A DNA stretch of 64,000 nt. It comes from Desulfatiglandales bacterium (lineage in GTDB: Bacteria > Desulfobacterota > DSM-4660 > Desulfatiglandales > Desulfatiglandaceae). The position numbers and the translations under genes were made by a program. Each line of letters starts with the position of its first letter. The first letter of the stretch is position 1. Of this stretch, positions 24,887 to 53,020 are shown in pieces. The notes under the pieces were generated by a model. The model had not been told where the DNA came from and made no database searches. It was given only the letters and a program-made list of their open reading frames with translations. Where the stretch lies: the NCBI GenBank assembly GCA_963662465.1, contig OY759599.1:2240001-2304000 (forward strand). The letters are read 5' to 3'.

Positions 24887-25654
24887 ATGGGTAGAGGACT
24901 GGAATTTAAACCCAGCATCTTAGGGTTTTTATGCAACTGGTGAGGATACTCCGCTGCTGATTTGGCTGGAGTTTCCAGACTACAATATGCGTCAGATATT
25001 AAGATTATTCGTGTCATGTGTACCGGCAGGGTCGACTTGTCATTTATCTTCCGAGCGCTTTTGAATGGTAAGGACGGCGTATTGATCGGCGGATGCCATC
25101 TCGGTGAATGCCATTATGTGACCCAGGGAAATTATGGTGCGTTCAGTACGCTTTACATCGGAAGAAAACTCCTCGAAACCATCGGGCTTAACCCCGAGAG
25201 GTTAAGGCTCGAGTACATTGCCGCCTCCGAGGGGAGCCGGTACGCCGAGGTGATGAATGACTTTTCTTCGAAGGTGAGGGAATTGGGACCTCTCGGTAAG
25301 GGTGAGGGGATGGATGGAACCGTTTTAAGGCGAAAACTTGAAGTGGTTTATAATTTAGTCCCATACATAAAACTCGTGGAAAGAGAGCGGTTGCGCGTGC
25401 CGGTAAAATCAGTCGAGGCGTACAAGGCGTTTTTCACGGGTGATGAATTTGATAAAATATTCCAGGAGTTGGTTGCGGATAAGATGGAAATGGGCCAAAT
25501 GATGGCGATCCTTCGAGAAAAACCTTGTTCAGCCAAAGAGATTTCTGAAATTTTAGGGGTAACGCCGGGTGAAGCGTCCAATCAGCTGAAACGCTCCGCG
25601 AGGCAGGGATTTGTCGAATTTGATGAAAGCCATATGCGCTTTTGTGTTGCATAG
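24887..25654 (+). CDS. bamF: BamF-like MvhD/FlpD [2Fe-2S] selenoprotein with C-terminal winged helix
   Basis: ATG at 24887 after aaggag; reads FLCNW-TGA(24941)-GYSAADLAG in frame with the predicted ORF at 24962; MCTGRVD and GCHLGECHY motifs. Confidence 0.9.
24962..24982 (+). promoter_or_regulatory. Putative bacterial SECIS hairpin
   Basis: ctgga-gtt-tccag stem ~22 nt after the in-frame UGA, with G in the apical loop. Confidence 0.6.
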
Positions 25655-25708
25655 GGCGATCACCCTTCCAGCAAGCTTGGAAAATAAAGAAGAGTTAGGA
25701 CAGCAGCT

Positions 25709-26161
25709 ATGGATAATGGTAAAATCGAGAAGATTATAGATGGATATCCGAGTGACCCGAGTTCACTGATTCAGGTATTGATCGATATTCAGAGCGAACT
25801 TCGATGGCTTCCCAAGGAAGCATTAAAGTTGGTCAGTCAGAAACTTAACGTACCCATGAACCGGATACAGCACATTATCACCTTTTATAAGGCGTTCAGT
25901 ATCGTGCCCAAAGGACGCCATGAAATTCATGTGTGTACCGGGACCGCCTGTCATGTGCGCGGGGCGACGCGTGTTCTGGATGCAGTTGAAGCGTATACCG
26001 GAATCTGCCCCGGCGAGACGGACGAGAATTTAAAGTACAGCCTTGATACCGTGAGTTGTGTCGGTTGCTGTGCCCTGGGACCGGTGGTGGTCGTTGATGG
26101 CGAATATCATGGCAATATGGGATCGGCAAAGGCCGAAGAAGTGTTGAAAAACTACGAGTAA
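25709..26161 (+). CDS. bamG: BamG-like NuoE-type [2Fe-2S] subunit
   Basis: CTGTACHVRG and SCVGCCALGP motifs. Confidence 0.88.
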   Translation: MDNGKIEKIIDGYPSDPSSLIQVLIDIQSELRWLPKEALKLVSQKLNVPMNRIQHIITFYKAFSIVPKGRHEIHVCTGTACHVRGATRVLDAVEAYTGICPGETDENLKYSLDTVSCVGCCALGPVVVVDGEYHGNMGSAKAEEVLKNYE

Positions 26162-26170
26162 GGAAGAATT

Positions 26171-28096: not shown

Positions 28097-28097
28097 A

Positions 28098-28730
28098 ATG
28101 AGCAAAATTCATTTACAGATCGATGGAAGAGAAGTCGAAGCGGAAGAAGGGATGACCATCCTGGAAGCTGCCCGTAGTGTGGGGATCAATATTCCGACCC
28201 TTTGTTATCACGAGCTGTTGGAACCCTATGGGGCTTGCCGAATTTGCGTGGTTGAAGTGGAAGCCGGCGGCAGAAAAGGTCTTGCCGCAGCTTGCGTTCG
28301 TCCGGTAGACCAAAACATGGTCGTCATTACTCGAAATGAACAAATCAATGGCATACGCAAAATATTGATAGAGCAGTTTCTGGCTCATGCGCCGGATTCC
28401 GAAATCCTGTTGAAATTGGGTGAAGAGTACGGCGCCGATAAGGATCGATTTGAAAAACAGTCCACTTTCTGCATTCTGTGCGGCCTTTGTGTGAGATATT
28501 GTGCTGAGGTTAAAAAGAAAAACGCCATCGGGTTTTTTGACAGAGGCTCAACCCGGGAAATAAAATTCATTCCTGAGATTGCCGCCAAGGCGTGTAAAGA
28601 TTGCAAAGAATGTTTTCCGCTCTGCCCGACATCGTATCTGCAGGCTGCTTATCATTTGACCGAAGCGCTCGCGTTTCCTTCAACTCCTTTTGAAAAAGGA
28701 AAAGTGTTTGATGAAAATAAACAAGATTGA
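28098..28730 (+). CDS. bamI: BamI-like NuoG N-terminal Fe-S subunit
   Basis: IPTLC...GACRICVVE...AAC, CILCGLCVRYC and CKDCKECFPLCP motifs. Confidence 0.85.
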   Translation: MSKIHLQIDGREVEAEEGMTILEAARSVGINIPTLCYHELLEPYGACRICVVEVEAGGRKGLAAACVRPVDQNMVVITRNEQINGIRKILIEQFLAHAPDSEILLKLGEEYGADKDRFEKQSTFCILCGLCVRYCAEVKKKNAIGFFDRGSTREIKFIPEIAAKACKDCKECFPLCPTSYLQAAYHLTEALAFPSTPFEKGKVFDENKQD

Positions 28731-34831: not shown

Positions 34832-36574
34832 ATGTGCAAAGGCATCATTCTTCTTATAATTGTCATTGCTTTATCGGGGAATTCCACCCATGCCGGGGTG
34901 CTTGAAAATGTGCTGATAGAGGCAGCTTGCTCGGGAAACAGCGAACGGATCAATCAAATGCTTCAGCTTGATATCAAAATAGATATCGGCGCAAGAAGTA
35001 AAGATGATACCACTCCCCTTTCATGCGCGATTGCCAATGGCCATGACAAGGCTACGGAACTCCTCCTTTCTTACGGTGCAGACCCGAACATAACGGACAG
35101 ATTCGGCAGGACTGTGTTGTTTGAAGCATCCATGAAGGGTTTTCCACGGGTAGTCGAGGCGCTCCTCAAAAACGGTGCAAATCCTAACGCCTCGGACACG
35201 GAAGGATTGACCCCTCTCTTCCTTGCCGTATCCCAGGGAAACAATAAAGATGTCGTGGCACTTTTGATAAACCATGGGGCAAATGTCAATGCAGTCACGC
35301 ATCAGACAAACGAATCCGCCCTCTTTCGTGCGGTCGGCTATAACAGGAATGAAATGGTGTCACGCCTCCTCTCTAAAGGCGCCAACGCAACGATTAAATC
35401 CAAAAAAAGCGGCAACACTGCCTTTCATATGGCCGTGGAAATGCGAAATCTTTCCATTATCAAAACATTTCTACAGCACGATGTCGATATCAATGAAAAA
35501 AATGATCAAGGGGATTCGGCCCTCATCATTGCATCCAGGATGGGAAATACCGAGGTTGCCGAACTTCTACTTGAACATGGCGCTGATCCGGAAATAACGA
35601 ACAAGCATGGCCTGAATTGTCTGCTCGATGCCATCTCCGCCGGGCAGACATTAACGGTGGAGGCCCTGATAAAGAGGGGACTATCCATTTCCACCCGGGA
35701 TAAATACAACAGAACCGCCCTTATGCTTGCCGTGATAAGTGGCAACAAAAATGTTGTGTCGTCGGTTCTCAAGAGACGTGTGAATGTCAATGACAAGGAT
35801 AATGACGGAAAAACAGCCTTGATGCACGCCTCGTTGGCCGGCAATCGTGAGGCTGCGGTAATGCTGCTTAACGCAGGGGGAAATCTTGCCCTAAGGGACA
35901 GCAACGGTGATACCGCCCTTATGCTTGCCGCCGCAGAGGGGGAAAAAGAGATTGTGAGCCTGCTTTTGGATAAGGGAGCAACCGTTGATGAGGTTTCCAG
36001 GTCAGGACGGACGCCGCTTCATAGGGCATCGGAATATGGAAACCTGGAGGTCGTCAGCGAACTCCTTTCAAGAGGGGCGGACGTCAATGCCAAAGATAAG
36101 GAATCGCAGGCATCGGCTCTTCATTTGGCTTCAGCGGGAGGACATGAAGAAGTCGTAAAAAAATTACTGGAAAAGGGGGCAAATCCAAATGCACCGGACA
36201 AGCTCGGTCAAACGCCCATTCACAAAGCCGCCTTTAAGGGTTCCGGCAAGATCATCAGCATGCTTCTTGGCGCAGGCGCCGGGATCGATGCAAAAGATCA
36301 GTCAGGAAAAACACCGATCATGCTTGCCTGTGAAAGGGGATATGTCGACGCGATAAGGTGTTTCATGGAAAATAATGCTGATATTAACGCAACGGATAAT
36401 CTCCGGTGGACGCCCCTTTTCTGGGCAGTATTTTACGGCCATTATGACGCTGTGAGTCTTCTGCTCCAGAATGGCGCGGATAAAAATTATAAAGACAAAA
36501 AAGGGTTGACTGTTTTGGACTACGCAACGGAGCAAGGTCACGGATACCTGATAGAGCTTTTAAGGCCAAGATAG
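34832..36574 (+). CDS. Secreted ankyrin-repeat protein
   Basis: Signal peptide plus about 16 G.T[PA]L..A...G repeats. Confidence 0.92.
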   Translation: MCKGIILLIIVIALSGNSTHAGVLENVLIEAACSGNSERINQMLQLDIKIDIGARSKDDTTPLSCAIANGHDKATELLLSYGADPNITDRFGRTVLFEASMKGFPRVVEALLKNGANPNASDTEGLTPLFLAVSQGNNKDVVALLINHGANVNAVTHQTNESALFRAVGYNRNEMVSRLLSKGANATIKSKKSGNTAFHMAVEMRNLSIIKTFLQHDVDINEKNDQGDSALIIASRMGNTEVAELLLEHGADPEITNKHGLNCLLDAISAGQTLTVEALIKRGLSISTRDKYNRTALMLAVISGNKNVVSSVLKRRVNVNDKDNDGKTALMHASLAGNREAAVMLLNAGGNLALRDSNGDTALMLAAAEGEKEIVSLLLDKGATVDEVSRSGRTPLHRASEYGNLEVVSELLSRGADVNAKDKESQASALHLASAGGHEEVVKKLLEKGANPNAPDKLGQTPIHKAAFKGSGKIISMLLGAGAGIDAKDQSGKTPIMLACERGYVDAIRCFMENNADINATDNLRWTPLFWAVFYGHYDAVSLLLQNGADKNYKDKKGLTVLDYATEQGHGYLIELLRPR

Positions 36575-36662
36575 AAACAACTGTTTGTGAATAGGGTGGT
36601 GTTAAACATGAAAATGCTATTTCATGCTATTTCAAGAAATCAGATCGAAAGGAATCAAACAG

Positions 36663-36914
36663 ATGAAGGATGACCTCGGGAAATACTATTATCCCTTTCC
36701 ACAGAATAAAAAAGTACGCATGTATGTTCAGGAAATAGACGGCATGGTCCAGTTCAGGCTCTGGAATTCCGATGATGCCAAGTTATGGGACGACCATGGC
36801 TGGATCCCTTACGACGCCATACAACAAGCCGCCGCCATGTATGAACGGAAGAATGCTTTCAACCCCAACCAGGCCTACGACCTGGATATTGCAAAGGCGC
36901 TGCTGAAAGAATAG
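36663..36914 (+). CDS. Small conserved hypothetical protein
   Basis: GKYYYPFPQNKKVRMYV...FRLWN...LWDDHGW pattern. Confidence 0.65.
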   Translation: MKDDLGKYYYPFPQNKKVRMYVQEIDGMVQFRLWNSDDAKLWDDHGWIPYDAIQQAAAMYERKNAFNPNQAYDLDIAKALLKE

Positions 36915-36921
36915 CCCGAAC

Positions 36922-37725
36922 ATGCTTAATTTCTTAAACGGACTGGATGAAGATCTACGCAAGGCATTAATCGCCCAACTTCGAAATCTCTGGACCCACG
37001 GGTCCACGGCCATTGAAGGGAATACCCTGACACTGGGAGAGACGGCCTTTGTTATCGAGGAAGGGTTGACGGTTTCCGGCAAACCGATTAAAGACCATCA
37101 GGAGGTTTTGGGGCATGCACACGCCATCGATTTGATTTATGATATGGTGGAACGTGCATCAGCCATCGGGGAAACGGATTTATTTCTTTTGCATCAGGCC
37201 GTTCAAACCACCGTAACATTTGATGCATACAAACCCATTGGCGCATGGAAAAAGGAACCGAACGGCACTTACATGGTAGCCGGGGACAAACAGATATTTT
37301 ATGAATATGCCGACCCTTCAGATGTACCCGTTCTCATGAAAAAATGGATCGGGTTGCTCAATCAGAGTGCTGAAACGATACAGTCAAAAGAAGATGCCGC
37401 AGCCATATATGCGAAGCTTCATATGGCCTTTGTGTGGGTACATCCGTTCTTTGATGCAAATGGCAGAATGGCGAGGCTTACGGCGAACATCCCTGTTTTG
37501 CAATGCGGATTTCCGCCGATCTTGATTCCAAAAGCCAAACGGTGGGAATATATTCTCCATCTTTCGGAATATAAACTGGCGGAAGGGTCGCCCAAAGCAT
37601 CCACTGATTTGCTGCCGATAAACGCCAAGCTCAATAAATTCATCGAATTTTGTAAAGAATCATGGGCGGAATCACTGGATTTGGTGGAGACTATACGGCA
37701 AAAACAAAAGGAAAGGGATGCATGA
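36922..37725 (+). CDS. Fic-family protein
   Basis: STAIEGN inhibitory motif and HPFFDANGRMAR catalytic motif. Confidence 0.9.
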   Translation: MLNFLNGLDEDLRKALIAQLRNLWTHGSTAIEGNTLTLGETAFVIEEGLTVSGKPIKDHQEVLGHAHAIDLIYDMVERASAIGETDLFLLHQAVQTTVTFDAYKPIGAWKKEPNGTYMVAGDKQIFYEYADPSDVPVLMKKWIGLLNQSAETIQSKEDAAAIYAKLHMAFVWVHPFFDANGRMARLTANIPVLQCGFPPILIPKAKRWEYILHLSEYKLAEGSPKASTDLLPINAKLNKFIEFCKESWAESLDLVETIRQKQKERDA

Positions 37726-40779: not shown

Positions 40780-43700
40780 ATGTTTCCCATGAAATTCGAT
40801 CACAAAACCCTCGAAACTCTCCCTGTCCCGGATGCCGGACGGATCGCGGATGTCGTCAAGCTCCTCAAGGCCATTGCCATGGGACGGGTCATGGCCTATT
40901 TCAAATCCAAACGGGGAACGGATCCCGCCCTGACGGCCGGACTGGCCGACCATTTTGTCATCCGCCGACTGGAAGATGAGGAAAACCGCATTCCCATCGT
41001 AAGCCTCCTGTCCCGAAAAGAGAAGACCTGGATGATTGATATTCATGAACGGATCTTCGATTACCTGGCCTTCGTAATCCCCAGCGATCCTGAATCCAGA
41101 ATTGGCGGGCACTCCGGTGAAGAGGGAAAAATCCTGGCTTTTATCGAATTCCTACTAAGGCATCAAGTGGAACACATGCTTTATCCGGAAGAATCCGAGA
41201 GTGCGGTAATCCATTCCGATCTGGTCTTTGCCATGGACCGACGCAGGGAGGACCCCACCTATTACGCCATGCTCCGGAAGGTTCTGGACGATGAGATGAA
41301 CGGGCTCGAAGGAAAGCTGTATCAGAACATGTTTGAATCGGAAGAACAGGGCAGGCCTCACAAATATCTCATTACCCGGATGCTGACCTCTTTCATCGAC
41401 AGCCTGGTGGATATTCCGGAGTCGCTCCTTCACGCCGCGTTTCCCTTTTTAGACACCGATCTCAAGACAAGACTCATGATTGAATATTACCGGAGAAGTC
41501 GGGAAGTATCCTATTCCCTGATGCAACGGGCCTTTTACCTCCGGGAAGTACTCCGATTTTTCGCTCTCGCCATCGCACGCAATGAGAAAGAAGCCGAGAA
41601 GGTCTTTGATATGTTCAAAGATCGATGGGGCCTGCTTTACCTCTTCCATGAACTGGATCTCCCGGAAACCATTCTGGAGGAAAAAGAGCCCAATGAAATC
41701 TTCTCTTATTTCAGGAAGAGCCTGGAAGAACTCTCCCTTGACGACACGTCTTTTCGCCTGACACCCCGACCTCCGAAAAAGACGGCGCCCGACTCGTCCG
41801 AGCCGCCCGCCGCCACAAAAAGCCTCAAGGACCGCATTGAAGAGGCCCGGAATGATCCGTCATTTCCCCGCCAGGCGCTGGATGTGATCGACAAGAACAA
41901 GATCAGCGCCGTCGGCCACAGTGGCCCCAAGTACACGGAACTGATTGAAGTTCTTCTTGCCGTTCCGTGGGGCCGTGTTCAAAAAATATCGGTTGATCCC
42001 GAAGCCTTTGAGGAGGGTCTCAACAGGACGCACTATGGCCTGGCACGGCCCAAAGAGCTCGTCTGTGATTTTTTTGCCAACCTGATCTGGCGTTATCAGA
42101 ACTTCAACGGGATAGAAGATGTCAAGCACCGCAGCGGAAGCGCCTTCCTCTTTGTGGGTCCCCCCGGCGTCGGCAAGACCTCCCTGGCAATCTCCATTGC
42201 CGAAAACCTCGGGGTTCCCTACCACAAAATCTCCCTGGGCGGAATGCGCGAAGAATCGGCCCTCCGGGGCCACGGGTTCACCTTCGAAGGTTCCAAACCC
42301 GGAGCCATCGTTCAGGGTCTGATCAAAATGGGCATCATGAACGGGATGTTTATTCTCGATGAGGCGGACAAGACCGAGCCCGCAACCGTTTCAACGCTCC
42401 TGGAGATTTTGGACCCGGAGCAGAATCATCTTTTTCACGACAAGTTCACCATGACGACCGTGGACATTGACCTCTCCAACTGCCACTTTATCCTTACAGC
42501 CAATACCCTGGAAACGGTGCCGCCGCCGGTACTCAACCGCTGCGAAGTGGTTCTCCTGGATCGCTACAGCATTGAAGAAAAAATCGCCATCGGAAGCCAA
42601 TATCTGATCGGGCGGGTACGAAAACGACATAAAATCACCAAAGAGACCATCGCCATCAACCCCGACCATGAAGTTGACCTTCTGCGATACCTGATCAAAA
42701 CATACACCCATGAACCGGGGGTAAGGGAGCTGGAACGGATCATCCGGACCCTTTTCCTGAGAATCTTTCGAAAAGAAATCCTGAGCAAGGGACAGTCATC
42801 GGTTCAAATCACACGGGAGAAGATCAAGCAGTATCTGGAGACGCCCACGCCGCCAAGAGGGATCTCCGAGGAAGACCGTGTGGGGGAAATATTGGCCCTG
42901 GGGGTAAATGTGGCGTTGGGCATCGGGTCCGTGATTCCCATACAGGCCACTCCGATCTGGCTTGAAAGAAGCAACGAGGGCCGGCACGGCGCCTATCTGA
43001 GCATGGTCCACGCCACCGGAAATATTGAGAAAATCATGGATGAAAGCCGAAAGGTGGCCACCACCGCCATCTTTCACTGTGCCGATGCATTGGGGATTGA
43101 CCTAAAGCAGGCGGGAACGCCGATCCACCTTCATTTCATGGGGAGTTCTACCCGGAAAGACGGGCCTTCCGCCGGAGGCGCCATCGCACTGGCCCTGGCA
43201 TCGGCCCTCTCCGGCCGCTATATCCGGAGGGATGTGGCTATGACCGGCGAGATCGATACCAAAGGCCGCATCACCGCCGTGGGCGGTCTCGACGTTAAAA
43301 TGGAAACAGCCTGCGATGCGGGATGCAAAACCATGATCATCCCCATGGAAACGCTCCATGATGAGAAAGGCATCAAACGCCTGCCCCAGGCCCTGAAGAA
43401 GGAGCTTCAGATCCTGACCTACGAATCCTGGAAAGGGGTACATGAACCATTTGACTACCGCCGTCACGTCCTTCAGGTCGTTGCGGTAGACCATCTGGTA
43501 CAGGCAGCTGATGTGGCTTTTGTAGACCGGAACGAATTGACGACGTTGACAAGCGCCTTGACGCCCCATGCCGCGTCAATAGCCGAAACCCTTGAGGCCA
43601 CACAAAGGGAACAGCGACAGGGTTTACGCGTTCTATACCTGAAAGATCCTAAAGAACTGCAAATGGAGGGGATGGAGGGTCCGCTCACAGGCGACGATTC

Positions 43701-44313
43701 CTGCGTCTTTCTGTTCCCGGCGGGAATGGAGAAAACAGTCCGGGAAAAATTCCCCCATTTCAAGGGCCGCATTCTATTCCGCCATATGGACCGCTCCCCG
43801 GGGAAGGTTACAGCCATTATAGGGGATATCCTGAAAAAATCGGCAACAACGTCCCATAAGCCGATTTCCGTCTCCGTCATCGCCCCGTTCTTCTTCTTGC
43901 GGAAGGAAGGGATTACGCCCCAGGCTCTCTTTCCGGATGGAACACAGGGAAACCTGACGCTTTTTGCCAACAACTACACCGTTCAGGACATCAAAATCAA
44001 GAGGTGCAAAGCGGCCCTGAATCGCGTCTTCAGCCACCTTTCCAAAGAGCCCCCCGCACAATTGGAAGCCTGCCCTTTTCTGACAATGCACCACGGCATC
44101 CATGTGGTGGATATTTCGTTCATTCCCGAAAAATATCGACTCGATGTGAAGCGTGCGGAAGATATCCTTAACCGATGCCTGCGGGAGTGGCTCAACACGG
44201 TTGGGACAGGGATTAAACCCTCACGCAATCAACCCATGAACCATCAGTTTTCGGACAATGGGCGGAACCATGAGGGCGCCCAGAACCCCGAAGACGACGC
44301 CGCAGGCAGATGA
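40780..44313 (+). CDS. Lon (S16)-family AAA+ protease with atypical N- and C-terminal domains
   Basis: GPPGVGKT, FILDEADK, LLEILDPEQN, KDGPSAG, AMTGEI and GGLDVK motifs. Confidence 0.88.
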   Translation: MFPMKFDHKTLETLPVPDAGRIADVVKLLKAIAMGRVMAYFKSKRGTDPALTAGLADHFVIRRLEDEENRIPIVSLLSRKEKTWMIDIHERIFDYLAFVIPSDPESRIGGHSGEEGKILAFIEFLLRHQVEHMLYPEESESAVIHSDLVFAMDRRREDPTYYAMLRKVLDDEMNGLEGKLYQNMFESEEQGRPHKYLITRMLTSFIDSLVDIPESLLHAAFPFLDTDLKTRLMIEYYRRSREVSYSLMQRAFYLREVLRFFALAIARNEKEAEKVFDMFKDRWGLLYLFHELDLPETILEEKEPNEIFSYFRKSLEELSLDDTSFRLTPRPPKKTAPDSSEPPAATKSLKDRIEEARNDPSFPRQALDVIDKNKISAVGHSGPKYTELIEVLLAVPWGRVQKISVDPEAFEEGLNRTHYGLARPKELVCDFFANLIWRYQNFNGIEDVKHRSGSAFLFVGPPGVGKTSLAISIAENLGVPYHKISLGGMREESALRGHGFTFEGSKPGAIVQGLIKMGIMNGMFILDEADKTEPATVSTLLEILDPEQNHLFHDKFTMTTVDIDLSNCHFILTANTLETVPPPVLNRCEVVLLDRYSIEEKIAIGSQYLIGRVRKRHKITKETIAINPDHEVDLLRYLIKTYTHEPGVRELERIIRTLFLRIFRKEILSKGQSSVQITREKIKQYLETPTPPRGISEEDRVGEILALGVNVALGIGSVIPIQATPIWLERSNEGRHGAYLSMVHATGNIEKIMDESRKVATTAIFHCADALGIDLKQAGTPIHLHFMGSSTRKDGPSAGGAIALALASALSGRYIRRDVAMTGEIDTKGRITAVGGLDVKMETACDAGCKTMIIPMETLHDEKGIKRLPQALKKELQILTYESWKGVHEPFDYRRHVLQVVAVDHLVQAADVAFVDRNELTTLTSALTPHAASIAETLEATQREQRQGLRVLYLKDPKELQMEGMEGPLTGDDSCVFLFPAGMEKTVREKFPHFKGRILFRHMDRSPGKVTAIIGDILKKSATTSHKPISVSVIAPFFFLRKEGITPQALFPDGTQGNLTLFANNYTVQDIKIKRCKAALNRVFSHLSKEPPAQLEACPFLTMHHGIHVVDISFIPEKYRLDVKRAEDILNRCLREWLNTVGTGIKPSRNQPMNHQFSDNGRNHEGAQNPEDDAAGR

Positions 44314-44742
44314 AATTAAAGCGTGCTGCAAGATGAGGTCCCAATCCATTCCGATGACCCATTCCACTGCAATAATGGTCAGAAAACGGCTTGCGGCGCC
44401 CAGAGCGCCGACGATGGCGCAAGCCACGTAACTACCTGCCAATCCCGAAGAAAAAAGGCCCACCAGGTCAACAATGAGGCCGGGGACCACAAACTTCAAA
44501 ATAATCAACGGACCGCCCTTGCCCATCCCCAACAAGGTGCAGAGAAGCCCCGCCAGGAGTCCCACCAGTGTAGCGGCGCCCAGCCTGGGAACGCAACCCC
44601 TTCCCAGGATCAGGAAAAACATGGTAAAAAACATGGCATGCCCGGGAATATTTAAGTGCAATCTAAATACGCCCCGTGTAATGACAATAAAGCAGGCACA
44701 GAATGCCAGACAAAGCGCTTCCTGAAGGGTGAATTTTTTCAT
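44221..44742 (-). CDS. ECF transporter S-component-like membrane protein
   Basis: 173 aa, 5-6 TM helices, ATGA-coupled to the T component. Confidence 0.7.
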   Translation of the reverse strand: MKKFTLQEALCLAFCACFIVITRGVFRLHLNIPGHAMFFTMFFLILGRGCVPRLGAATLVGLLAGLLCTLLGMGKGGPLIILKFVVPGLIVDLVGLFSSGLAGSYVACAIVGALGAASRFLTIIAVEWVIGMDWDLILQHALISSACGVVFGVLGALMVPPIVRKLMVHGLIA

Positions 44743-45413
44743 GGACGCGGTCGCTCCCCAAACCCCCTGGCCTCGGCGGATAACGCCGCTGACCTTGAGG
44801 TTTTTAACGCCCTCACCATGAGAGGGATCATCAAGCACTGAAACAGGTCTTTCCAGTGAATGGGATTCCAGGCATAGCGAATTCCCACGGGCGCCCCACG
44901 AAGTTGTTGGGCCATATAGATCTCCCGGGTTTCACGGGCAAAGAAGGGAACAAACCGCAAACTGGTAAAGAGAAGAAACGACAATCGTTCCGACATGACC
45001 TTTTTCAGACTTCCCATCATCCGACTCCCTTCGGTCGTTCGAAGGAGGACCGTTCCCGGCAAAAAAAGAAGCAGAATCTGGCAACCGGTCCGCAATCCCG
45101 GCCAGAGACCTTCCGCAAACCCGTATTTAATCAGATACAGCAGCAGGATGACCGCCATCTGGACCAGGAAGAAGCGAATATCCCGCCACAGATTACGAAA
45201 GCCCAGGTGGGCTGAAAGATAATAGGCCAGGTTGACAACCAGAAGTCCCGCCAGCATCCAGGGCTCCCGGGCGGCAATAGCGCCGGCTGAAAAAGCAACG
45301 GCCAGAATAATTTTCCACCCCGCGCCCAGCCTGTGGATGGGGGAGTTCCCGGCACAATACTGAAAGGCGCCTCCCCTGAAACCGCCATTTTCAATTCGTT
45401 CCCATTTCTTCAA
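44739..45413 (-). CDS. ECF transporter T component (CbiQ/EcfT)
   Basis: SPIHRL...K, LRFVP, AQQLRG and AEARGF motifs. Confidence 0.9.
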   Translation of the reverse strand: MKKWERIENGGFRGGAFQYCAGNSPIHRLGAGWKIILAVAFSAGAIAAREPWMLAGLLVVNLAYYLSAHLGFRNLWRDIRFFLVQMAVILLLYLIKYGFAEGLWPGLRTGCQILLLFLPGTVLLRTTEGSRMMGSLKKVMSERLSFLLFTSLRFVPFFARETREIYMAQQLRGAPVGIRYAWNPIHWKDLFQCLMIPLMVRALKTSRSAALSAEARGFGERPRP

Positions 45414-46773
45414 TGCGCCCCTCCTTTAGAAAAAGCGTTTCATCGGCCCATGCGCCATCGGGCAGGAATTCGTGAGACGCGATTACCACCGTTGTCCCCC
45501 GCGATTTACGCAAACGGGACAGGATCTTTAAAATGTTTTTTCTCCGGGCAAAATCAAGCCCCGCAAAAGGTTCATCCAGCATGAGGATTTGAGGTTGCGG
45601 CGCCATCACCGATGCCAGGGCCACCCGGTGCTGCTCCCCGAAACTGAGGGTCAGCGGTGATCGGTCTTTCAAATGGGCCACATGGCAGATTTCAAGGGCT
45701 TGGGCGACACGGGTCTTGATCTCCCGGGCTGAAACCCCCATCCGCTTAAGGGAAAACCCCACTTCATCCCGAACCGTGTCTTCAAAAAGCTGCCGTTCAG
45801 GGTTCTGGAAAAGATACCCTATTTTCCCCAGGAGCCTATCCATTCTGGGACGTCCCATTCCGTCCATTTGAATGTCGCCGGCCTCGGGCCGAATGAGCCC
45901 TGTCATGCATTTCAACAGCGTGGATTTCCCCACACCATTTTGACCATGAATGAACACCAGGCGGCCCGCAAACAAACTCAGGTTGAGGTCGTCAAACAAC
46001 AATCGCCCGTTACCACCCGAGAGACAAAGCCCCTTCACGGAGAGCAGACGCTTCACGGGTTCCCTTGCCTCGGCCGCCATCCCCCCGTGACGCTTCGGGG
46101 GAGAAAGAATAAATTCAGACGGAATTTCACGATCAATGCGCTGAATACGTCCCCGGTCCATGAAAACAAAACGATCCGCCGGCTGTTCGAAAGGGCCCAG
46201 TTCATGATCGGCAATCAGCAGGGTATGCCCCGCCGCTTTCAGACGGGTTAAAAGAGCCGTCAACCGACGCTTTCCGTCGGCATCCAGTTGGGCCGTGGGT
46301 TCATCCAGGAGCAAAATTTTCGGGGAGGTGGAGAGTACCGATGCAATGGCCAGGCGATGGGTCTGCCCGGCGGAGAGGGCTTCCACATTTCGCGTTTCAA
46401 AACCGGTCAAGGAAACCGCTTCCAGGCTTTTTCCGACTGCCGTCTCAATTTCCCGAGGACTGAACCCCCGGTTTTGGGGCCCAAAGGCCACTTCATCCGC
46501 CACCGTGGTGCAGAGGAGATGGCTTTCCGCATTTTGAAACACCAGCCCGGTGGGACAGGGTGCCCCCCCCGCAACTCGAAGGGTCCCTTTCTCTATTCCA
46601 CCTTTCAAAAGCCCCTTGAGCGCCAGAAAAAGCGTACTCTTTCCACAGCCTGATGGCCCCGTAAAACAGATACATTCGCCGGACGGTACGGACAAAGACA
46701 GATGGGATAAGGCCCAGGCCTCTCGACCTGGATACCGGTAAGCATAATCCCTTAGCTCAACAACGGGGTTCAT
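45391..46773 (-). CDS. ECF transporter ATPase with duplicated ABC domains
   Basis: GPSGCGKS and GQNGVGKS Walker A motifs, FQN Q-loops, LSAGQ and LSFGE signatures. Confidence 0.92.
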   Translation of the reverse strand: MNPVVELRDYAYRYPGREAWALSHLSLSVPSGECICFTGPSGCGKSTLFLALKGLLKGGIEKGTLRVAGGAPCPTGLVFQNAESHLLCTTVADEVAFGPQNRGFSPREIETAVGKSLEAVSLTGFETRNVEALSAGQTHRLAIASVLSTSPKILLLDEPTAQLDADGKRRLTALLTRLKAAGHTLLIADHELGPFEQPADRFVFMDRGRIQRIDREIPSEFILSPPKRHGGMAAEAREPVKRLLSVKGLCLSGGNGRLLFDDLNLSLFAGRLVFIHGQNGVGKSTLLKCMTGLIRPEAGDIQMDGMGRPRMDRLLGKIGYLFQNPERQLFEDTVRDEVGFSLKRMGVSAREIKTRVAQALEICHVAHLKDRSPLTLSFGEQHRVALASVMAPQPQILMLDEPFAGLDFARRKNILKILSRLRKSRGTTVVIASHEFLPDGAWADETLFLKEGRIEEMGTN

Positions 46774-46810
46774 AGGGGGCGAACGTCGGTCTCAACAAAA
46801 GATTCAGGCA

Positions 46811-47530
46811 TTATCCTTTTTTCCGCTTTCCGCACAGGGATTCCCAAAGGCCTTCACCCTTTTTATGCACGGCGAAAACGGCCCGGTTGCCCCAGAGCCT
46901 GGGCCGCAACCAGTTCAGTGTATGAACCCGATCGTCGGGAGCCGGGGCCATCCCGTCCCGATCCAGGGAAACCACCGTAATATGGGCCTGTTCCAATTGG
47001 GACACCGCCACATCCTCGGAAAAATCCCGAAGCCCGCCAAATTCGATAAACCTGCCGTTCCACCCGGAGGCGGTCAATCCCACGGCGGCGGCTGCCCCGA
47101 TGATGCCGTCGTTGGTTCCCCCATGCCCGGAAAGGTGAAATCCAGACGCCGCAACAAGGGCATCTTTCTGTGTAACCACTTTCCGGGTGCAAAGAAGACC
47201 GAAATCAAGCAGAACCGACAAATCGGTTTCCCCGTTTGGCGCCACGCATACGCCCGGATCGCTTCCCACAAGGGAATGCCGTTCCACGTGCGCCACGGCC
47301 CTTTCAATCAATTCCCCCAGCATAGCCTGATCCGGCATGTCCACCACCATGCAGGCGGAGCTGTTATGGGACGTGTAGGGGATATCGTCATGCAACAACA
47401 GTTGCTGACGCACAACACCCCACATGCAGCAGCCTTCCGGCAGCTCTTTTTCAAACCACCGGACCAATTTTCCGGTACCGCGGCCGGCATTTATATTGTC
47501 GGTATCGTCAAAACCGATATAGACGCGCAT
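46811..47530 (-). CDS. TiaS/COG1571 N-terminal-like 'DDTD' protein
   Basis: YIGFDDTD, IPYTSHNSSAC, SDPGVC and GIIGAAAAVG motifs; lacks the OB and zinc-ribbon tRNA-binding domains. Confidence 0.75.
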   Translation of the reverse strand: MRVYIGFDDTDNINAGRGTGKLVRWFEKELPEGCCMWGVVRQQLLLHDDIPYTSHNSSACMVVDMPDQAMLGELIERAVAHVERHSLVGSDPGVCVAPNGETDLSVLLDFGLLCTRKVVTQKDALVAASGFHLSGHGGTNDGIIGAAAAVGLTASGWNGRFIEFGGLRDFSEDVAVSQLEQAHITVVSLDRDGMAPAPDDRVHTLNWLRPRLWGNRAVFAVHKKGEGLWESLCGKRKKG

Positions 47531-47543
47531 GGGTTGACTCCAG

Positions 47544-47566
47544 GTTTTAAGTTTTAAGTTTTAAGT
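47544..47566. repeat. Heptamer tandem repeat (gttttaa)x3
   Basis: Same unit as in the MITE interior at ~8168-8197. Confidence 0.6.
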
Positions 47567-47630
47567 CTTGCTACCAATGATTTTCTTGTTTTTTGAAACA
47601 GCGTTTCAGGGAATAGACACTAACCGCTTT

Positions 47631-49652
47631 CTAAAAATAAACCGCCACGCCCCCGTAAATGATCCGCCCGGCGGTCGGGAACCCGTAACTTTCTTCATAA
47701 TTTTTGTCAAAGAGGTTGTCGGCCCCCACATAAAGATCCAGGAGACCGTTAAGCAACGTCTGGTCGAATTTCAGATTGACAATGGCGAAATTGTTCAACT
47801 CCGCTTTCTCATAGGGTTCGGACCGAGAGTAGTAGACCTGGTCCGCATTATAAATGACATTCGCATAGGCGGAAAAACCGAAGTAGAAGGTATACTTTCC
47901 TTCCAGCGTCAACTTGTGCCGGGGCCGGTATTGCAGCTCGTCCCTTCCACTGTTGGGGGACTTGTCTTCCGTATCCATGAAGGTATATCCCAGACGCAGC
48001 ATGAGTCGCTCAATAAACCGGGTTTCGGCAGTGACCTCAAACCCCTGAAACCGATACTTGTCGTAGTTCTGAAAATAGTCCTCGTTATTTGGTTTTTCAA
48101 TGTAGTCATCCACATCGGACAGAAATCCGTTAAGGGCAACACGGCTGTTGAGGGGCAGGGCCTGCTCCACACCCAGTTCATAGTTATAGGAGGTTTCCGG
48201 AACCAGATCCGGATTTCCTTCTCCAACGGAGTAGAGTTGACGAAGGGACGCAAAGCGGATTTTCTTTGCATATGCCCCTCGCACCCGAGTGCCCTTCACA
48301 ATATCGTAATAGGCGCCCGCCATATAACTCCCTTTGTTTTCGTTGGCGCCCGATTCTTCCTTGTTCTGCCAGTAGTGACCATATCCCAACACCAGCCCCA
48401 GACGATCAAAAAGGGTGATTTCATACTCCAGGGAAGCGCTGTAAACCCAGAGACTCCAGGCGTTATCGAAATTCCTGAACTCGTAATCCTTTCCGACTTT
48501 CTCATCCCGAATCTTGCCTTTGGAATCATATTCCTGCTTCTGTGCATCGAGGGCCAAAGTAAAGGATCCCGCGGATGTCAAATCGAGCGCCGTCTGGATG
48601 GTTCCCCCCCAGTTCTTGGATGTGCCGTCCTCAAAGTAGGTGCCCTTTGTCAGCATGGAATTATAGTTGTCATCATCGTACCGGGTCCGGTCCTCATCAT
48701 ACTCGTTGTAATAGGCCCAGCCCCGAATGTCCACAGGCCCCGGCAAATCATAGCTGGTTGAAAACTGGGCGTTAAACCCTTCGAAATGATTGACCCGTTC
48801 ATATTTCGGATTATTGGCAAAATCGTCGGGATCGGTCTTGGTGCCTTGCTTGGTACTGGGGGGAATGCCGTAATTGCCGTTTACAAAACTGGCCACGAGT
48901 CCCAGGTCCCAGTCTTTGGTGGGGGAATATCCAATGTTGCCGAAGACGTTGTTTCTTCGATTGTCGCTGTTTTCCCGTTCTCCGCCTCCCTGCAGGGACG
49001 TGGCTTGAAAGTCGTTGGCCAGAGGATAGTCCTTCCGGGCCGACATACTACCACTCACAAAGAAGTCCGCTCCTTTGGCGGCGCCGCCCGCGTTGAATCG
49101 TCCCAGACGTTCCGACCCTTCCCCGGTCTCTCCGGAAGCCATGCCGTGAATGCCCTCTTTGCCCTTCTTGGTGATGATATTGATGACCCCGCCCATCCCC
49201 CCCTGGCCGTAGAGGACCGAATTGGCGCCGTAACTCACCTTTATTTTGGCAATGTTTTCCGTGGGAATAATGGAAGGATCAAATTGACCGTCGTAGGTTG
49301 AATTGAGCGGCACACCATCGAGCAAAAGCAACACATGACGAGATCTGAAACCGCGGATATCCACACGGGGAGTGCCTTCCGCGCCGGTCCGAATCTCCAC
49401 GCCCGGCAGCAGTTGAAGAGCCTGATCCAGGGTCCTGGCATCCTTGTTTTGAATCTCCTCAGCCGTCACCTCGCGAACAGTGCCGGCGGTTTCCACCACG
49501 TCCTGCCTGGCGGAGACCACAACCTCTCCCAGCGTATAAACGCCTGCATTCTTTTCGTCTGTTTCCGCCACACCCAAGGCCGGGAACAGCCATAAGGCCG
49601 TACCAGCAACCAAAGATAACCTCATCCAACACCACGTCGTTCTCTTTTTCAT
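47631..49652 (-). CDS. TonB-dependent receptor
   Basis: Signal peptide, LGEVVVSA TonB box, plug IRGF...LLDGVP, NLFDKNY and C-terminal Phe. Confidence 0.95.
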   Translation of the reverse strand: MKKRTTWCWMRLSLVAGTALWLFPALGVAETDEKNAGVYTLGEVVVSARQDVVETAGTVREVTAEEIQNKDARTLDQALQLLPGVEIRTGAEGTPRVDIRGFRSRHVLLLLDGVPLNSTYDGQFDPSIIPTENIAKIKVSYGANSVLYGQGGMGGVINIITKKGKEGIHGMASGETGEGSERLGRFNAGGAAKGADFFVSGSMSARKDYPLANDFQATSLQGGGERENSDNRRNNVFGNIGYSPTKDWDLGLVASFVNGNYGIPPSTKQGTKTDPDDFANNPKYERVNHFEGFNAQFSTSYDLPGPVDIRGWAYYNEYDEDRTRYDDDNYNSMLTKGTYFEDGTSKNWGGTIQTALDLTSAGSFTLALDAQKQEYDSKGKIRDEKVGKDYEFRNFDNAWSLWVYSASLEYEITLFDRLGLVLGYGHYWQNKEESGANENKGSYMAGAYYDIVKGTRVRGAYAKKIRFASLRQLYSVGEGNPDLVPETSYNYELGVEQALPLNSRVALNGFLSDVDDYIEKPNNEDYFQNYDKYRFQGFEVTAETRFIERLMLRLGYTFMDTEDKSPNSGRDELQYRPRHKLTLEGKYTFYFGFSAYANVIYNADQVYYSRSEPYEKAELNNFAIVNLKFDQTLLNGLLDLYVGADNLFDKNYEESYGFPTAGRIIYGGVAVYF

Positions 49653-49997
49653 TGCACTGCTACCTTTCCGCTATCGTTATGATTAAAATTACACCCCCGC
49701 TCCTTCAGGAGCCTACCCAATGGAGGCCCGATAATATGCTTTTGAGTTTGATTTTGTCAACTGAATAGGGGGTCGGAGTTGACTTATAGAATATACAAAC
49801 CAATATAGGCGTATAGGGGTCTTAACCGAGTTTGATCAACTGTCGAATTAAGAACCATTTTAGGCTCTCAAAACGACTATTGAGCAACGCAGCATAAAAA
49901 TAATCTTTTCTATTGAATCGCTAACGTGTAGGATATTCCCACTGGTCATTGCATTTTTTGAAACCTTTCACCCCTGAACGGCTCTAAATGAGGTAAC

Positions 49998-50606
49998 GTG
50001 ACAGACATCGCGACCGACATGACGGATCACCATCTGATCGTCCAATTCAAGGAAGGGTCCATGGAAGCCATGGAAGCCATCGTGGATCGGTATGAAAATC
50101 AAATCTTCACCTTCGGTCTCAAGATGTGCGGTCAACTCCAGGATGCCGAGGATATTACACAGGACACTTTTCTGAATGCCTTCAAGTATTTAAACAGTTT
50201 CAGAGAAGAGACCAAATTGAAAAACTGGTTGTTCAAAATTGCCGCCACGGCATGCATCCGAAAACGGCGTAAGAAAAAATGCGAGCCGGATCGGGAACTA
50301 TCCCTGGAATCCTTTACAAACGAGAACGGCGCACCCGAAACATATGATATCCCCGATTGGTCCGATAACCCGTCAGATAAAGTGTTGCAGGCGGAAATGA
50401 AACAGGTCATCAATGATGCCATCAAGACGCTCCCGCACAAATACAAACTGGTATTCAACCTCCGGGACATTCAAGGGTTCAGCACCAAAGAAACCGCCGA
50501 AATCCTTGAAATCAGTATTGAATCGGTAAAAACCCGGCTCCATCGAGCGAGACTGGCCCTGAGGGAAAAAATATCCCACTCATACAGCGAAGGAAAAATC
50601 TCATGA
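49998..50606 (+). CDS. ECF RNA polymerase sigma factor
   Basis: DAEDITQDTF, NWLFKIA and SVKTRLHRAR motifs. Confidence 0.93.
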   Translation: MTDIATDMTDHHLIVQFKEGSMEAMEAIVDRYENQIFTFGLKMCGQLQDAEDITQDTFLNAFKYLNSFREETKLKNWLFKIAATACIRKRRKKKCEPDRELSLESFTNENGAPETYDIPDWSDNPSDKVLQAEMKQVINDAIKTLPHKYKLVFNLRDIQGFSTKETAEILEISIESVKTRLHRARLALREKISHSYSEGKIS

Positions 50607-50863
50607 AGGAGGCGTGCAAAAAAAACTTCGAAAGAATTTCCGAATACCTGGATGGAGAACTCAAACCAAACGTCTGCCAACAGATCGAAAACCATCTCAA
50701 AACATGCCCGGAATGCAGGTCATGCGTTGATGCGCTGAAAAAAACCGTCGACCTCTGTAAAAAAAGCACTCGGGAAGAGATACCCCAGGATATGCGAAAT
50801 CGCCTCAGAAACAAACTGAGAGAGTGTTTCGGGAAGGAAGAACCGAACCCCCGCGCAGAATAA
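50603..50863 (+). CDS. Zinc-finger (zf-HC2) anti-sigma factor
   Basis: ISEYLDGEL...HLKTCPEC; overlaps the sigma stop codon. Confidence 0.9.
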   Translation: MKEACKKNFERISEYLDGELKPNVCQQIENHLKTCPECRSCVDALKKTVDLCKKSTREEIPQDMRNRLRNKLRECFGKEEPNPRAE

Positions 50864-51117: not shown

Positions 51118-53020
51118 ATAGGGGTAGGAAAGAGCCTCTTGGCTCTCCCCTCCCTCCGAACCGTGCATGCGGTTCTCCCGCACACGGCTCTCCGGTCGAT
51201 AGTTTCCTCATCGGGATCGGCACGCTGCTAACCGGGCCTCATGCATAGTGAAAAGCCCGATTTTCGCGAAGTAGGCATTCGGCCAGCGGCGGTGGGCTTC
51301 AAGGCTTTTGCCCCAGCCCTTGCGTTTGTTACGACGTAATAATACGGCGCGTAAGCGTCGGCGGACAAACTTATCCACCGCCGCAAACTCAGTGCGGTAG
51401 GCGTGTTTGAAGTAACCAAACCAGCCTTCGAGCATGGGGTTCAGATCATCAATGATGCTTTCCATACTTCCGCTACGTTTGCGCCGGGTCTCTTCCCGGA
51501 TTTTATCACGAAGGGCTTTACGGCTTTTACTGCGTATCCAGCGCTTTCCTGCCTCAAACCGGTATCCCAGGAATTCAAATCCCTGACCCTTTTGTCGACA
51601 GTCGCCAAGATGCGTCTTGTCCGGGTGTAAGCTCAGGTCATTAGCCTGTACCCACTCCCGTACCTTTTGCAAAGCATTCTCCGCTTCCGTTTGACTGCGG
51701 CTGAGGATAACAAAGTCGTCCGCGTAACGCACCATCCGCATACCTGATTCCGCGATCAGGCTGTCAAGAGGATGCAGGTAAATATTCGCAAGCAAGGGGC
51801 TGACTACCGCCCCTTGTGGCGAACCACCCGTCGGTGTCCATCTTTCCAAGCCGTCCATCACGTCCTGTTTCAGGAACATTTGAATCAGATTGAGCAATTT
51901 GCCGTCGCTGATGCGCATTTCGACTTGTTGCATCAGCTTATCGTGCGGAATCGTATCAAAGTAACTTTTCAGGTCGGCGTCCAGTATGAAGGTGTAGCCT
52001 TCCTTAATAAGCGCGTCTACTTCTCGCAACGCGTCCTTGCAACCTCTTTGCGGCCTGAAGCCGTAACTCATCGGCAGAAATTCATGCTCGAATATGGGCT
52101 CCATAACCATTTTAACCGCTGCCTGCACTACCCGGTCTTTGACCGTGGGTATCCCCAGCGGGCGTTGTTTGCCGTCGCTTTTCGGAATGTATACCCGTTT
52201 TACCGCTTCCGGTCGGTACGTTCCCGCTTTCAAGGTTTCATGCAGTTCGGCAAGGTATTTCTCCGCCTGCTCCTTAAAGCGCTTTATGCTGATACGGTCT
52301 ATCCCTGCCGCTCCTTTATTGGCTTTGACACGTCCCCAAGCCGCTTCCAGCGTCGACAAGGCGAACACCTTATCCATCAAACTGTACCATTTACCACCTT
52401 TCACCCCGTTACCCAGGGCTGCCAACATACGTTCCGTCCACACCGATGCTTCCACCCAATCCCATCGGGTTTCTGCCTCGCGTTTAGTTGTTTCCAACAC
52501 TGCCGAGACTGCTTGATTTAGCTGCATCTATATGACCTTTCCGTATCTATCTTCCTATCCTCCTTCCCTCGGCACGGTTTTGCTATCCGCGCTTTTCACA
52601 ACCCGGTATCCGACGCAGGCGGCGGGTACTGGTCTCACGCCGTAAGCCTTGTTAGCAGGACCGTTCTGTCGCTACGGTACTATGAGGACTCTGACTCCTG
52701 CCTCCTGTCACCCCAAGAGACAGGTCTCCCTGCTTATCTCGCTTTACCTTCCAGTCATTCCGACCCCAAACATACCATGCCGTCAAACCATCGCTTTAAC
52801 CGCCATTACAGCGTGGTCTGTGAGTTTCAGGCTTCACCATGGAACGGTAGGCTCGCCACCACATGACACCGAATCGGGTTCGTCATCCTACGGACTGACT
52901 TTTCGCCTCCGGTTGCTCTCCACCCCGCCTCGCGGCGACGCAGTTACCTTCGGCTACGGAGCTATGGCATACTCCGGTACGGACTTTCACCGCACTGATA
53001 AAGCGCCTTCACAGGCGCAC
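51118..53020 (-). mobile_element. Group II intron
   Basis: 5' end GTGCG at 53020; domain V GAGCCGTGTGCGG...CCGCATGCACGGTTC with AGC triad; domain VI and 3' end CCCCTAT at 51118; RT ORF inside. Confidence 0.93.
51208..52527 (-). CDS. ltrA: Group II intron reverse transcriptase/maturase, no endonuclease domain
   Basis: GAAGID, RPLGIPTVKDR, SYGFRP, PQGAVVSPLLANIYL and YADD motifs. Confidence 0.96.
   Translation of the reverse strand: MQLNQAVSAVLETTKREAETRWDWVEASVWTERMLAALGNGVKGGKWYSLMDKVFALSTLEAAWGRVKANKGAAGIDRISIKRFKEQAEKYLAELHETLKAGTYRPEAVKRVYIPKSDGKQRPLGIPTVKDRVVQAAVKMVMEPIFEHEFLPMSYGFRPQRGCKDALREVDALIKEGYTFILDADLKSYFDTIPHDKLMQQVEMRISDGKLLNLIQMFLKQDVMDGLERWTPTGGSPQGAVVSPLLANIYLHPLDSLIAESGMRMVRYADDFVILSRSQTEAENALQKVREWVQANDLSLHPDKTHLGDCRQKGQGFEFLGYRFEAGKRWIRSKSRKALRDKIREETRRKRSGSMESIIDDLNPMLEGWFGYFKHAYRTEFAAVDKFVRRRLRAVLLRRNKRKGWGKSLEAHRRWPNAYFAKIGLFTMHEARLAACRSR

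Follow-up and report, generated by a model that had tools for sequence, protein, structure and literature searches.

A TonB-dependent receptor, an ECF-type importer and a TiaS-core-like protein encoded in one operon of a Desulfatiglandales bacterium: a candidate module for tungsten or molybdenum acquisition

Genes of the operon and their products

The operon described here is located in the genome of a Desulfatiglandales bacterium, within the 64,000-nucleotide stretch of contig OY759599.1 that was analysed as a whole and is referred to as the window. On the minus strand, between positions 44221 and 49652, five co-oriented open reading frames (ORFs) were identified, encoding in order a TonB-dependent outer-membrane receptor, a stand-alone protein related to the catalytic core of TiaS (designated DDTD protein after its N-terminal sequence MRVYIGFDDTD), a fused double ATPase, EcfA-EcfA', the scaffold protein EcfT, and an S component of the energy-coupling factor (ECF) type. 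The intergenic gaps, from 5' to 3', are 100, 37, −23 and −4 nt. This gene list agrees with that of a preliminary description of the same DNA; all five ORFs were confirmed and only the start of the S-component gene had to be revised. The absence of a periplasmic binding protein, also noted there, was borne out by Pfam and NCBIfam scans of the window proteins, which gave no such protein in the cluster. The identical five-gene order was found in 11 related loci of Desulfatiglandales/NaphS2-type genomes, with protein identities of 57-97%, and the same genes in rearranged order in further lineages, indicating that the arrangement is not due to chance.

The first gene (47631..49652, minus strand) encodes a protein of 673 amino acids with a plug and a 22-strand-type barrel. 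Both domains scored above the Pfam cut-off (plug PF07715, 91.5 bits; barrel PF00593, TonB_dep_Rec_b-barrel, 101.5 bits), and a signal peptide and a TonB-box-like sequence, YTLGEVVVSA, are present, while the N-terminal signalling extension is absent. As judged from these sequence features, the protein is a TonB-dependent receptor. Its nearest solved relatives are BtuB (E 2e-25) and CirA, and all NCBIfam subfamily and equivalog models for substrate-defined receptors stayed far under their cut-offs (129 bits for BtuB against 600-836), so that the substrate specificity is not readable from these matches. Receptor orthologues share 78-95% identity in related modules and 38-52% in distant modules.

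The inner-membrane part of the system is encoded by the last three genes, all on the minus strand. The fused EcfA-EcfA' ATPase (45391..46773; 460 amino acids) carries two ABC_tran stretches and scored 315.4 bits with TIGR04520 (ECF_ATPase_1; cut-off 315) and 322.3 bits with TIGR04521 (cut-off 330). EcfT (44739..45413; 224 amino acids) is of the CbiQ type, matching PF02361 at 50.2 bits against a cut-off of 25. The S-component ORF had been listed as 44221-44838, but its homologues align from the ATG at 44742, giving a protein of 173 amino acids (44221..44742) with a 4-nt overlap with the EcfT stop. This protein gave no family match in Pfam or NCBIfam at the default threshold. Among 40 members of its family, 16 weakly matched PF09819 (best E 1.2e-6) and seven matched PF09605, both being S-component families; a family profile built from 11 or 40 sequences found no match in PDB, and the protein was placed by fold comparison. 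The AlphaFold2 (AF2) model (pLDDT 88.7) is composed of six long helices plus a short C-terminal helix, and the top rows of the Foldseek search were all ECF S components, namely YkoE (5edl; TMq 0.72), ThiT, PanT, RibU and FolT (7nnt_C; 0.71), with 3rlb and 5kbw among the entries. On this predicted structure, the 173-amino-acid protein is an S component by fold. Six polar residues, R27, H29, H35, K75, D92 and H140, show a conservation of 90% or more among 40 sequences, and such a cluster of basic residues would suit an anionic ligand.

Since an S-component fold is thus encoded together with dedicated T and A-A' genes, the operon specifies a complete group-I-type ECF importer. The preliminary description had proposed a complete, dedicated importer of this kind, and the proposal is upheld, with the A and T subunits identified by family models and the S subunit by predicted fold. 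As in YkoEDC (YkoE, 5EDL), CbiMNQO and NikMNQO, the A, T and S components are encoded together, the T subunit is of the CbiQ type and the ATPases are of the ECF type. The operon differs from these systems in that the ATPases are fused, the S component matches no curated model at threshold, the importer genes share their operon with those for a TonB receptor and a TiaS-like enzyme, and the genomic context points to tungsten (W) or molybdenum (Mo) rather than to thiamine, cobalt or nickel.

The DDTD protein (46811..47530, minus strand; 239 amino acids) consists of a putative ATP-using core of residues 1-158 followed by a beta-rich C-terminal domain of about 80 residues. The window protein itself gave no Pfam match, and with the NCBIfam TiaS model NF040849 it aligned over residues 1-155 at E 9.1e-5. 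A profile of 50 family members detected the TiaS chains 3amt, 3au7 and 4rvz at E of about 1e-15 and 3u02 at E 1e-16, in each case over residues 1-152 only, and 36 of the 50 members weakly matched PF22641 (TiaS_TCKD). The AF2 model (pLDDT 94.9) was superposed on 4rvz by Foldseek (E 2.7e-10) and on 3amt_A by VIA-align (Z 20.9; rmsd 1.9 Å over 148 residues, model range 1-158). These comparisons sustain what the preliminary description had said of this protein, namely that it has the TiaS catalytic-core fold and is devoid of the tRNA-binding domains: the FLD, OB and zinc-ribbon domains of TiaS are absent, all matches stopping near residue 158. The C-terminal residues, from about 160 to 239, were covered by no row of the structure-library search. 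The ten columns D8, T10, D11, T19, T53, N56, G142, G145, G156 and R160 are invariant in the 50 sequences. The DDTD acidic motif, the threonine aligned with Thr18 of TiaS, and the motifs PYT..N, DPG and G.IGA.AAVG are invariant or nearly so among these diverse members, and the ATP-using core therefore looks intact at the level of sequence.

TiaS, the archaeal tRNA(Ile2) 2-agmatinylcytidine synthetase, cleaves ATP and transfers phosphate to the C2 carbonyl of C34, which is then attacked by the amine, and it autophosphorylates the threonine that is aligned with T19 of the DDTD protein. The N-terminal catalytic fold of TiaS (3AMT, 3AMU, 3AU7, 4RVZ, 5XOB; PF22641) is held in common with the DDTD protein, as are the acidic motif, the Thr18-aligned threonine, PYT..N, NPG or DPG, and G.IGA.AAVG. 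Homology to this domain, and the use of the name 'TiaS' for family members in some database records, could suggest that the DDTD protein is a bacterial tRNA-modifying TiaS encoded in the operon by happenstance. This idea is scarcely credible. The protein is 239 amino acids long, against about 420 for TiaS, an unrelated beta domain takes the place of the FLD, OB and zinc-ribbon domains, and the match to TiaS ends near residue 158. The TiaS_FLD model matched just two of the 50 members, at E of 0.16 or more, and the score with NF040849 was 21.2 bits against a cut-off of 600. In contrast to archaeal TiaS, the DDTD family is bacterial, is represented by one copy per genome and resides consistently in metal-transport contexts, in W/Mo transport and storage loci, in a host that has TilS. 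The window's genome encodes TilS (TIGR02432, 179.8 bits; cut-off 93.6), so that a TiaS-type tRNA function is not needed; together with the absence of tRNA-binding domains, this makes a tRNA role very unlikely.

Members of the DDTD family are stand-alone proteins of about 240-265 amino acids. A word-index search gave 2627 proteins at E<=0.001, and an exhaustive search gave 819 representatives at 50% identity. A search for longer proteins, made for fused forms, was empty, which is weak evidence, and six longer members (294-428 amino acids) carried no informative additional Pfam domain. The window's genome contains a single copy.

Neighbourhoods of the DDTD genes

Eighty loci, mostly from Thermodesulfobacteriota, were selected by similarity to the DDTD protein, their ORFs were clustered, and the recurrent families were annotated; a neighbour was counted when a match was present anywhere in the locus. 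The commonest characterised-type neighbour, found in 58 of the 80 loci, is an amino-acid-kinase-family protein that is, by sequence, a clear homologue of the molybdenum storage protein (MoSto) of Azotobacter vinelandii (MosA/MosB; 2OGX, 4F6T), with phmmer E values of 2.6e-63 for MosB and 2.7e-43 for MosA. The molybdenum storage protein is an ATP-dependent handler of molybdate and tungstate. Genes for TupB-like and TupA-like proteins were found in 29 and 28 loci, respectively (the best NCBIfam match of the TupA-like neighbour being TupA at E 1.9e-73, under the equivalog cut-off), TunR-like regulators with HTH_17 and PBP_like domains in 26, and PadR in 20. FmdE, DUF364, ModA-like and AOR proteins were less frequent (six, five, five and four loci, respectively). 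Altogether 64 of the 80 loci carried at least one W/Mo marker. The receptor-ECF module was found in 13 loci, with one more showing a weak S-like match only. Neither a W/Mo marker nor the module was detected in five loci, three of which are contigs under 3.7 kb. No pterin-biosynthesis gene was found among the recurrent neighbours.

The usual gene order is TunR-like, TupA-like (often two), TupB-like, ABC ATPase, DDTD, a 77-amino-acid protein, and MoSto-like. The 77-amino-acid protein (for example, at 8739-8972 of locus L074) is lysine-rich and conserved, lies between DDTD and the MoSto-like gene, and is the commonest DDTD neighbour of all (63/80 loci); the family gave no match in Pfam, NCBIfam or PDB. 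One further recurrent family ('family 8') was found to be an antisense shadow ORF of the MoSto-like gene and was dismissed.

Two loci unite the receptor-ECF module with tungstate-type genes. In L044 the order is receptor, EcfAA, EcfT, EcfS, TunR-like, DDTD, and in L050 it is PadR, receptor, EcfAA, EcfT, EcfS, DDTD, TupA-like, TupB-like, followed at some distance by the 77-amino-acid protein and the MoSto-like protein. The linkage of DDTD with transporter genes is not confined to the window (Tup-like genes in 28-29 and the receptor-ECF module in 13 of the 80 loci). The suggestion of the preliminary description that the DDTD enzyme is dedicated to this transporter has to be given up, because most members adjoin TupABC-like or MoSto-like genes with no ECF module. 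This distribution ties the role of DDTD to general W/Mo handling rather than to modification of the cargo of this one importer.

The association was also analysed in the reverse direction, using a survey of 401 sampled genomes of the phylum. The S-component profile matched nine genomes, seven of them strongly. In five of the six strong S loci outside the window, a DDTD homologue of 33-55% identity was found in or beside the module, the sixth locus being truncated at its contig end; two of these S-found loci, L104 and L105, carry TupA-like and/or TunR-like genes as well. DDTD itself was detected in 30 of the 401 genomes, one copy each, including all seven genomes with a strong S match. TupA-like genes were present in 248 of the 401 genomes at E<=1e-20 and in 27 of the 30 DDTD genomes. 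The three DDTD genomes without a TupA-like gene are G203, G123 and G000, the last being that of the window, and both G123 and G000 carry the receptor-ECF module.

The S profile also gave a weak match (E about 4e-6) to a 374-amino-acid membrane protein in two genomes of about 1.9 Mb, G048 and G002 (loci L110, 3626-4750, minus strand, and L111), which in addition weakly matches CbiQ at E 0.002, under the cut-off. It is flanked by a Wtp/Mod-like importer (binding protein, permease and TOBE ATPase) and by two tandem MoSto-like genes. A DDTD gene was not found in the G048 and G002 genomes.

With one DDTD copy per genome irrespective of the accompanying importer, and with partners of three sorts, namely MoSto-like genes, the ECF module and Tup-like genes, the protein could instead be a regulatory or quality-control ATPase or kinase that phosphorylates or gates the importer or the storage protein, or discriminates W from Mo. 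The computed alignment of the invariant T19 with the threonine autophosphorylated in TiaS would fit such an activity. Set against this, neither fused forms nor partner domains were found, although the empty search is weak evidence and the six longer members are uninformative, and we consider a regulatory function of this type quite unlikely.

A further link to W or Mo came from locus L109, which belongs to a different family of the phylum. Its operon, in the order DDTD, a 712-amino-acid TonB-dependent receptor, a 334-amino-acid protein, S-like, EcfA-A' and EcfT, lies directly 3' of a molybdenum cofactor (Moco) RNA motif (RF01055; 53.8 bits against a gathering score of 36; E 9.4e-10), of which the P3 stem is deleted in the alignment to the model. 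According to Regulski et al. (2008, PMC2408646), 58 of 176 Moco RNAs lack P3, and this lack is in almost perfect correlation with tungsten-cofactor metabolism.

A cofactor-sensing riboswitch in control of the L109 operon could also mean that the receptor-ECF pair imports an organic part of the cofactor, such as molybdopterin, cyclic pyranopterin monophosphate (cPMP) or the ready-made molybdenum or tungsten cofactor, and that DDTD uses ATP to activate the carbonyl of a pterin. The model for this step would be TiaS, of which the chemistry is on a pyrimidinone ring (the C2 carbonyl in cytidine). The fold of the S component, nearest to the vitamin-type S components YkoE (5edl), ThiT, RibU and FolT, agrees with such a salvage pathway, and TonB receptors typically carry bulky ligands. 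Most DDTD genes, however, have neither ECF nor receptor genes nearby and are located among genes on the metal side (TupABC-like in 28-29 and MoSto-like in 58 of the 80 loci), and the recurrent neighbours include no gene of pterin biosynthesis. Import of an organic cofactor part is for these reasons judged unlikely.

An importer unrelated to W or Mo, taking up cobalt or nickel, a corrinoid or a thiamine precursor, with the W/Mo neighbourhood of DDTD being coincidental for this operon, is highly improbable. Such an importer would agree with the matches of EcfT to the CbiQ family and of the ATPase to cbiO-type models, with the weak similarity of some S homologues to PF09819 ('ABC_cobalt'), and with BtuB as the nearest solved relative of the receptor. 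Yet CbiQ and CbiO are names given to T and A subunits of ECF importers in general, the window has no cobalamin or thiamine pyrophosphate (TPP) riboswitch, and the S component resembles CbiM and NikM neither in length nor in its top structural matches. The module also stands beside TunR-like or TupA-like genes in L044, L050, L104 and L105 and behind the Moco riboswitch in L109. A corrinoid had been among the candidate cargoes of the preliminary description; nothing in the analysis points to one.

The host genome and the region upstream of the operon

The window's genome is complete, a single contig of 8.16 Mb, and contains six genes of the AOR family, which typically encode tungsten enzymes. 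One of them (679 amino acids; 17855-19894) lies about 25 kb from the operon in a plus-strand cluster, 17855-28730, that also encodes a 188-amino-acid protein, an HdrD-like CCG/Fer4 protein, a 1025-amino-acid HdrA-like flavoprotein, MvhD/FlpD-like, NuoE-like and NuoF-like proteins, and a 2Fe-2S/4Fe-4S protein. By domain content, this cluster resembles the set for BamB-I, a tungsten-dependent class II benzoyl-CoA reductase. A remark in the preliminary description that the proposed uptake pathway would suit a host with W-dependent enzymes proved to be the key, as the DDTD family was found in tungstate/molybdate loci and the L109 operon behind a Moco RNA. No TupA-like gene was detected in the complete genome at E <= 0.001, nor is there one in the operon. 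The WtpA gene of this genome adjoins a TunR-like regulator gene.

Upstream of the receptor gene, a sigma-70-type promoter-like site, TTGACA-18-TATTAT, is located at 49731..49760 on the minus strand; it agrees with the consensus at 11 of 12 positions, and its position is conserved in related loci. The motif TTGACAA-N6-ACTCAAAA, at 49740-49760 on the same strand, spans this promoter and has exactly two copies in the 8.16-Mb genome. The second copy (G000:C1:7576337-7576357; L114, 2551-2571) is intergenic, with the TunR-like/WtpA genes on one side and a divergent gene for a 247-amino-acid membrane protein on the other. A looser form of the motif was confined to receptor promoters in close relatives and did not occur at the Tup/TunR loci of other lineages. 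Because the motif was defined after both sites were known, it is a lead for co-regulation and not evidence, and a shared operator was not adopted as an argument. A 21-mer, TTGACAAATGAAAACTGAAAA, occurs in identical form at 16 genome sites (for example, C1:346492, 840880 and 1167871), and presumably belongs to an element that is repeated or mobile.

A terminator-like match, consisting of a hairpin and a weak T-rich tract, was detected at 49693..49712 (minus strand), downstream of the promoter and ahead of the receptor start codon. Hairpins of differing sequence were seen by eye at the equivalent leader position in L002, L003 and L006, and the hairpin of the window may act as an attenuator. Taken as a whole, the leader showed no better folding than shuffled sequences (z −0.16). 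With Rfam at gathering score, the group II intron at 51118-51192 was the only match in the window and no riboswitch was detected; a search at E<=10 of the region upstream of the receptor (49500-50100) gave chance-level matches only. The statement of the preliminary description that no riboswitch is recognisable is accordingly confirmed, and a riboswitch in the window leader was rejected.

Divergent from the receptor gene, an extracytoplasmic function sigma factor of 202 amino acids is encoded on the plus strand (49998-50863) with an overlapping 86-amino-acid zf-HC2 anti-sigma-like ORF. Of the 80 loci, L001, the closest relative, is alone in having this pair next to the operon as well; the pair was rejected as the regulator and is probably not dedicated to the operon. 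On the other side, a 1177-amino-acid Lon-family protein (40780-44313, plus strand) with extensions of about 440 residues at the N-terminus and about 290 residues at the C-terminus, outside the AAA and Lon_C domains, is encoded convergently with the S-component gene, overlapping its 3' end by 93 nt.

Two other features of the window were observed. The group II intron (51118-52527, minus strand) contains a reverse transcriptase/maturase ORF at 51208-52527 (TIGR04416, 409.7 bits), and its domain V/VI matches RF00029 at 51118-51192. A 580-amino-acid protein made up nearly entirely of ankyrin repeats is encoded in the region 34832-37725 (plus strand), where it is followed by one small ORF and then by a Fic/DOC-family protein.

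Proposed role of the module

We consider it probable that the operon is a module for the acquisition of tungsten (or molybdenum), with the DDTD protein as an ATP-dependent step after import. In this scheme the TonB-dependent receptor would bring in W or Mo through the outer membrane in a scarce or bulky form, the group-I-type ECF importer (S, T and fused A-A') would move it over the inner membrane with no binding protein, and the cytosolic TiaS-core protein would spend ATP on the next step, whatever the importer. By the comparison of loci, the DDTD family is a regular constituent of tungstate/molybdate uptake and storage loci in the phylum, normally placed directly after TupABC-like and before MoSto-like genes, and hence an accessory to the import and storage of tungstate in general; in Desulfatiglandales-type genomes, that of the window included, it has been joined instead to a receptor-ECF importer. 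Its usual position between these genes suggests that its target is the imported metal oxyanion, or the step that passes this on to storage or cofactor synthesis. By its fold, the protein would probably transfer a phosphoryl or adenylyl group from ATP to an oxo group, either of the metal species or of the acceptor of that species. The host, in which W enzymes create a high demand, would obtain W (or Mo) through the module, W being the likelier of the two metals. Any particular substrate or reaction is held with far less confidence than the acquisition role as such.

Several observations weigh against this proposal. To our knowledge, vitamins, nickel and cobalt are the known ligands of ECF S components and oxyanions are not among them, and tungstate, being small, can cross porins; one would thus not expect free tungstate to enter by a receptor and an ECF importer. 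The window's genome has WtpA (325.6 bits summed) and ModA above cut-off, so that the host is not short of oxyanion importers. The MoSto-like and 77-amino-acid partners were not found in this genome with the queries used, and a MosA/MosB-like gene is likewise missing from the window. Specificity for tungstate rather than molybdate is not established, since all TupA-like matches in the 401 genomes score under the curated cut-off for TupA, 400 bits. TupA-like genes are also present in five of the seven strong-S genomes, and both systems are adjacent in L050; this coexistence argues against simple replacement of Tup, and possibly for different chemical species. The Moco riboswitch was found in one of 38 scanned loci (one of the 15 carrying the module), and not in the window. 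The survey genomes are moreover related, not independent, so that the counts are descriptive and do not constitute a test.

These points bear in part on the transported species. For free tungstate, no TonB receptor or ECF importer is required, and several carriers keep Tup-like genes; the cargo may therefore differ from the free oxyanion, and may be a chelate or a thiotungstate. The free oxyanion, at very low concentration, is a possible cargo too, and so is a pterin or a metallophore-bound metal, both of which the preliminary description had named. More tentatively, the receptor-ECF pair could be the first of its kind for a group-6 metal, importing a form of W that oxyanion ABC systems cannot use, such as thiotungstate or an organic chelate of W in sulfidic habitats. 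As part of the same tentative proposal, DDTD might be a new ATP-dependent enzyme of W-cofactor metabolism. By transferring a phosphoryl or adenylyl group to an oxo group, it would activate or release the metal, which could then be stored in MoSto-like cages or inserted into molybdopterin, possibly with selectivity for W versus Mo.

The three textbook uptake systems for tungstate and molybdate, ModABC, WtpABC and TupABC, depend on binding proteins and have no dedicated outer-membrane step. The candidate module shares with these type I ABC importers and their TunR/ModE-type regulators the partners DDTD, MoSto-like and TunR-like proteins and a presumed role in W/Mo supply. It differs in having no binding protein, in its membrane architecture, in the presence of an outer-membrane receptor, and in a host devoid of a TupA-like gene. 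The kinds of component (TonB-dependent receptor, group-I ECF importer and TiaS TCKD fold) are already known; for their combination, as recognised from sequence, no account was found in the literature searched, which did not cover subscription journals. Nor did this literature yield a description of an ECF or TonB-dependent route for W or Mo, or of a TiaS-like protein in metal metabolism; one ECF transporter article (PMC13119186) is about CbiMNQO and cobalt. The preliminary description had likewise known of no characterised counterpart, and no characterised system matched here; the DDTD protein falls outside TiaS, and the operon is none of Tup, Wtp or Mod. Of its overall picture, the gene list, the fold, the completeness of the ECF importer and the hint at tungsten stood, and the dedication of DDTD to this importer and the corrinoid did not.

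If the proposed role is correct, an ECF-type importer and a TonB receptor for W or Mo would extend both transporter classes to a new nutrient, and a conserved ATP-using enzyme, acting after import and ahead of storage or cofactor synthesis in many syntrophic, sulfate-reducing and aromatic-degrading anaerobes, would provide tungsten-cofactor biology with a step that it has lacked. Aldehyde oxidoreductases and class II benzoyl-CoA reductase are among the W enzymes on which these anaerobes depend. The TiaS kinase fold, hitherto found only in tRNA modification, would then have a second function of a very different kind.

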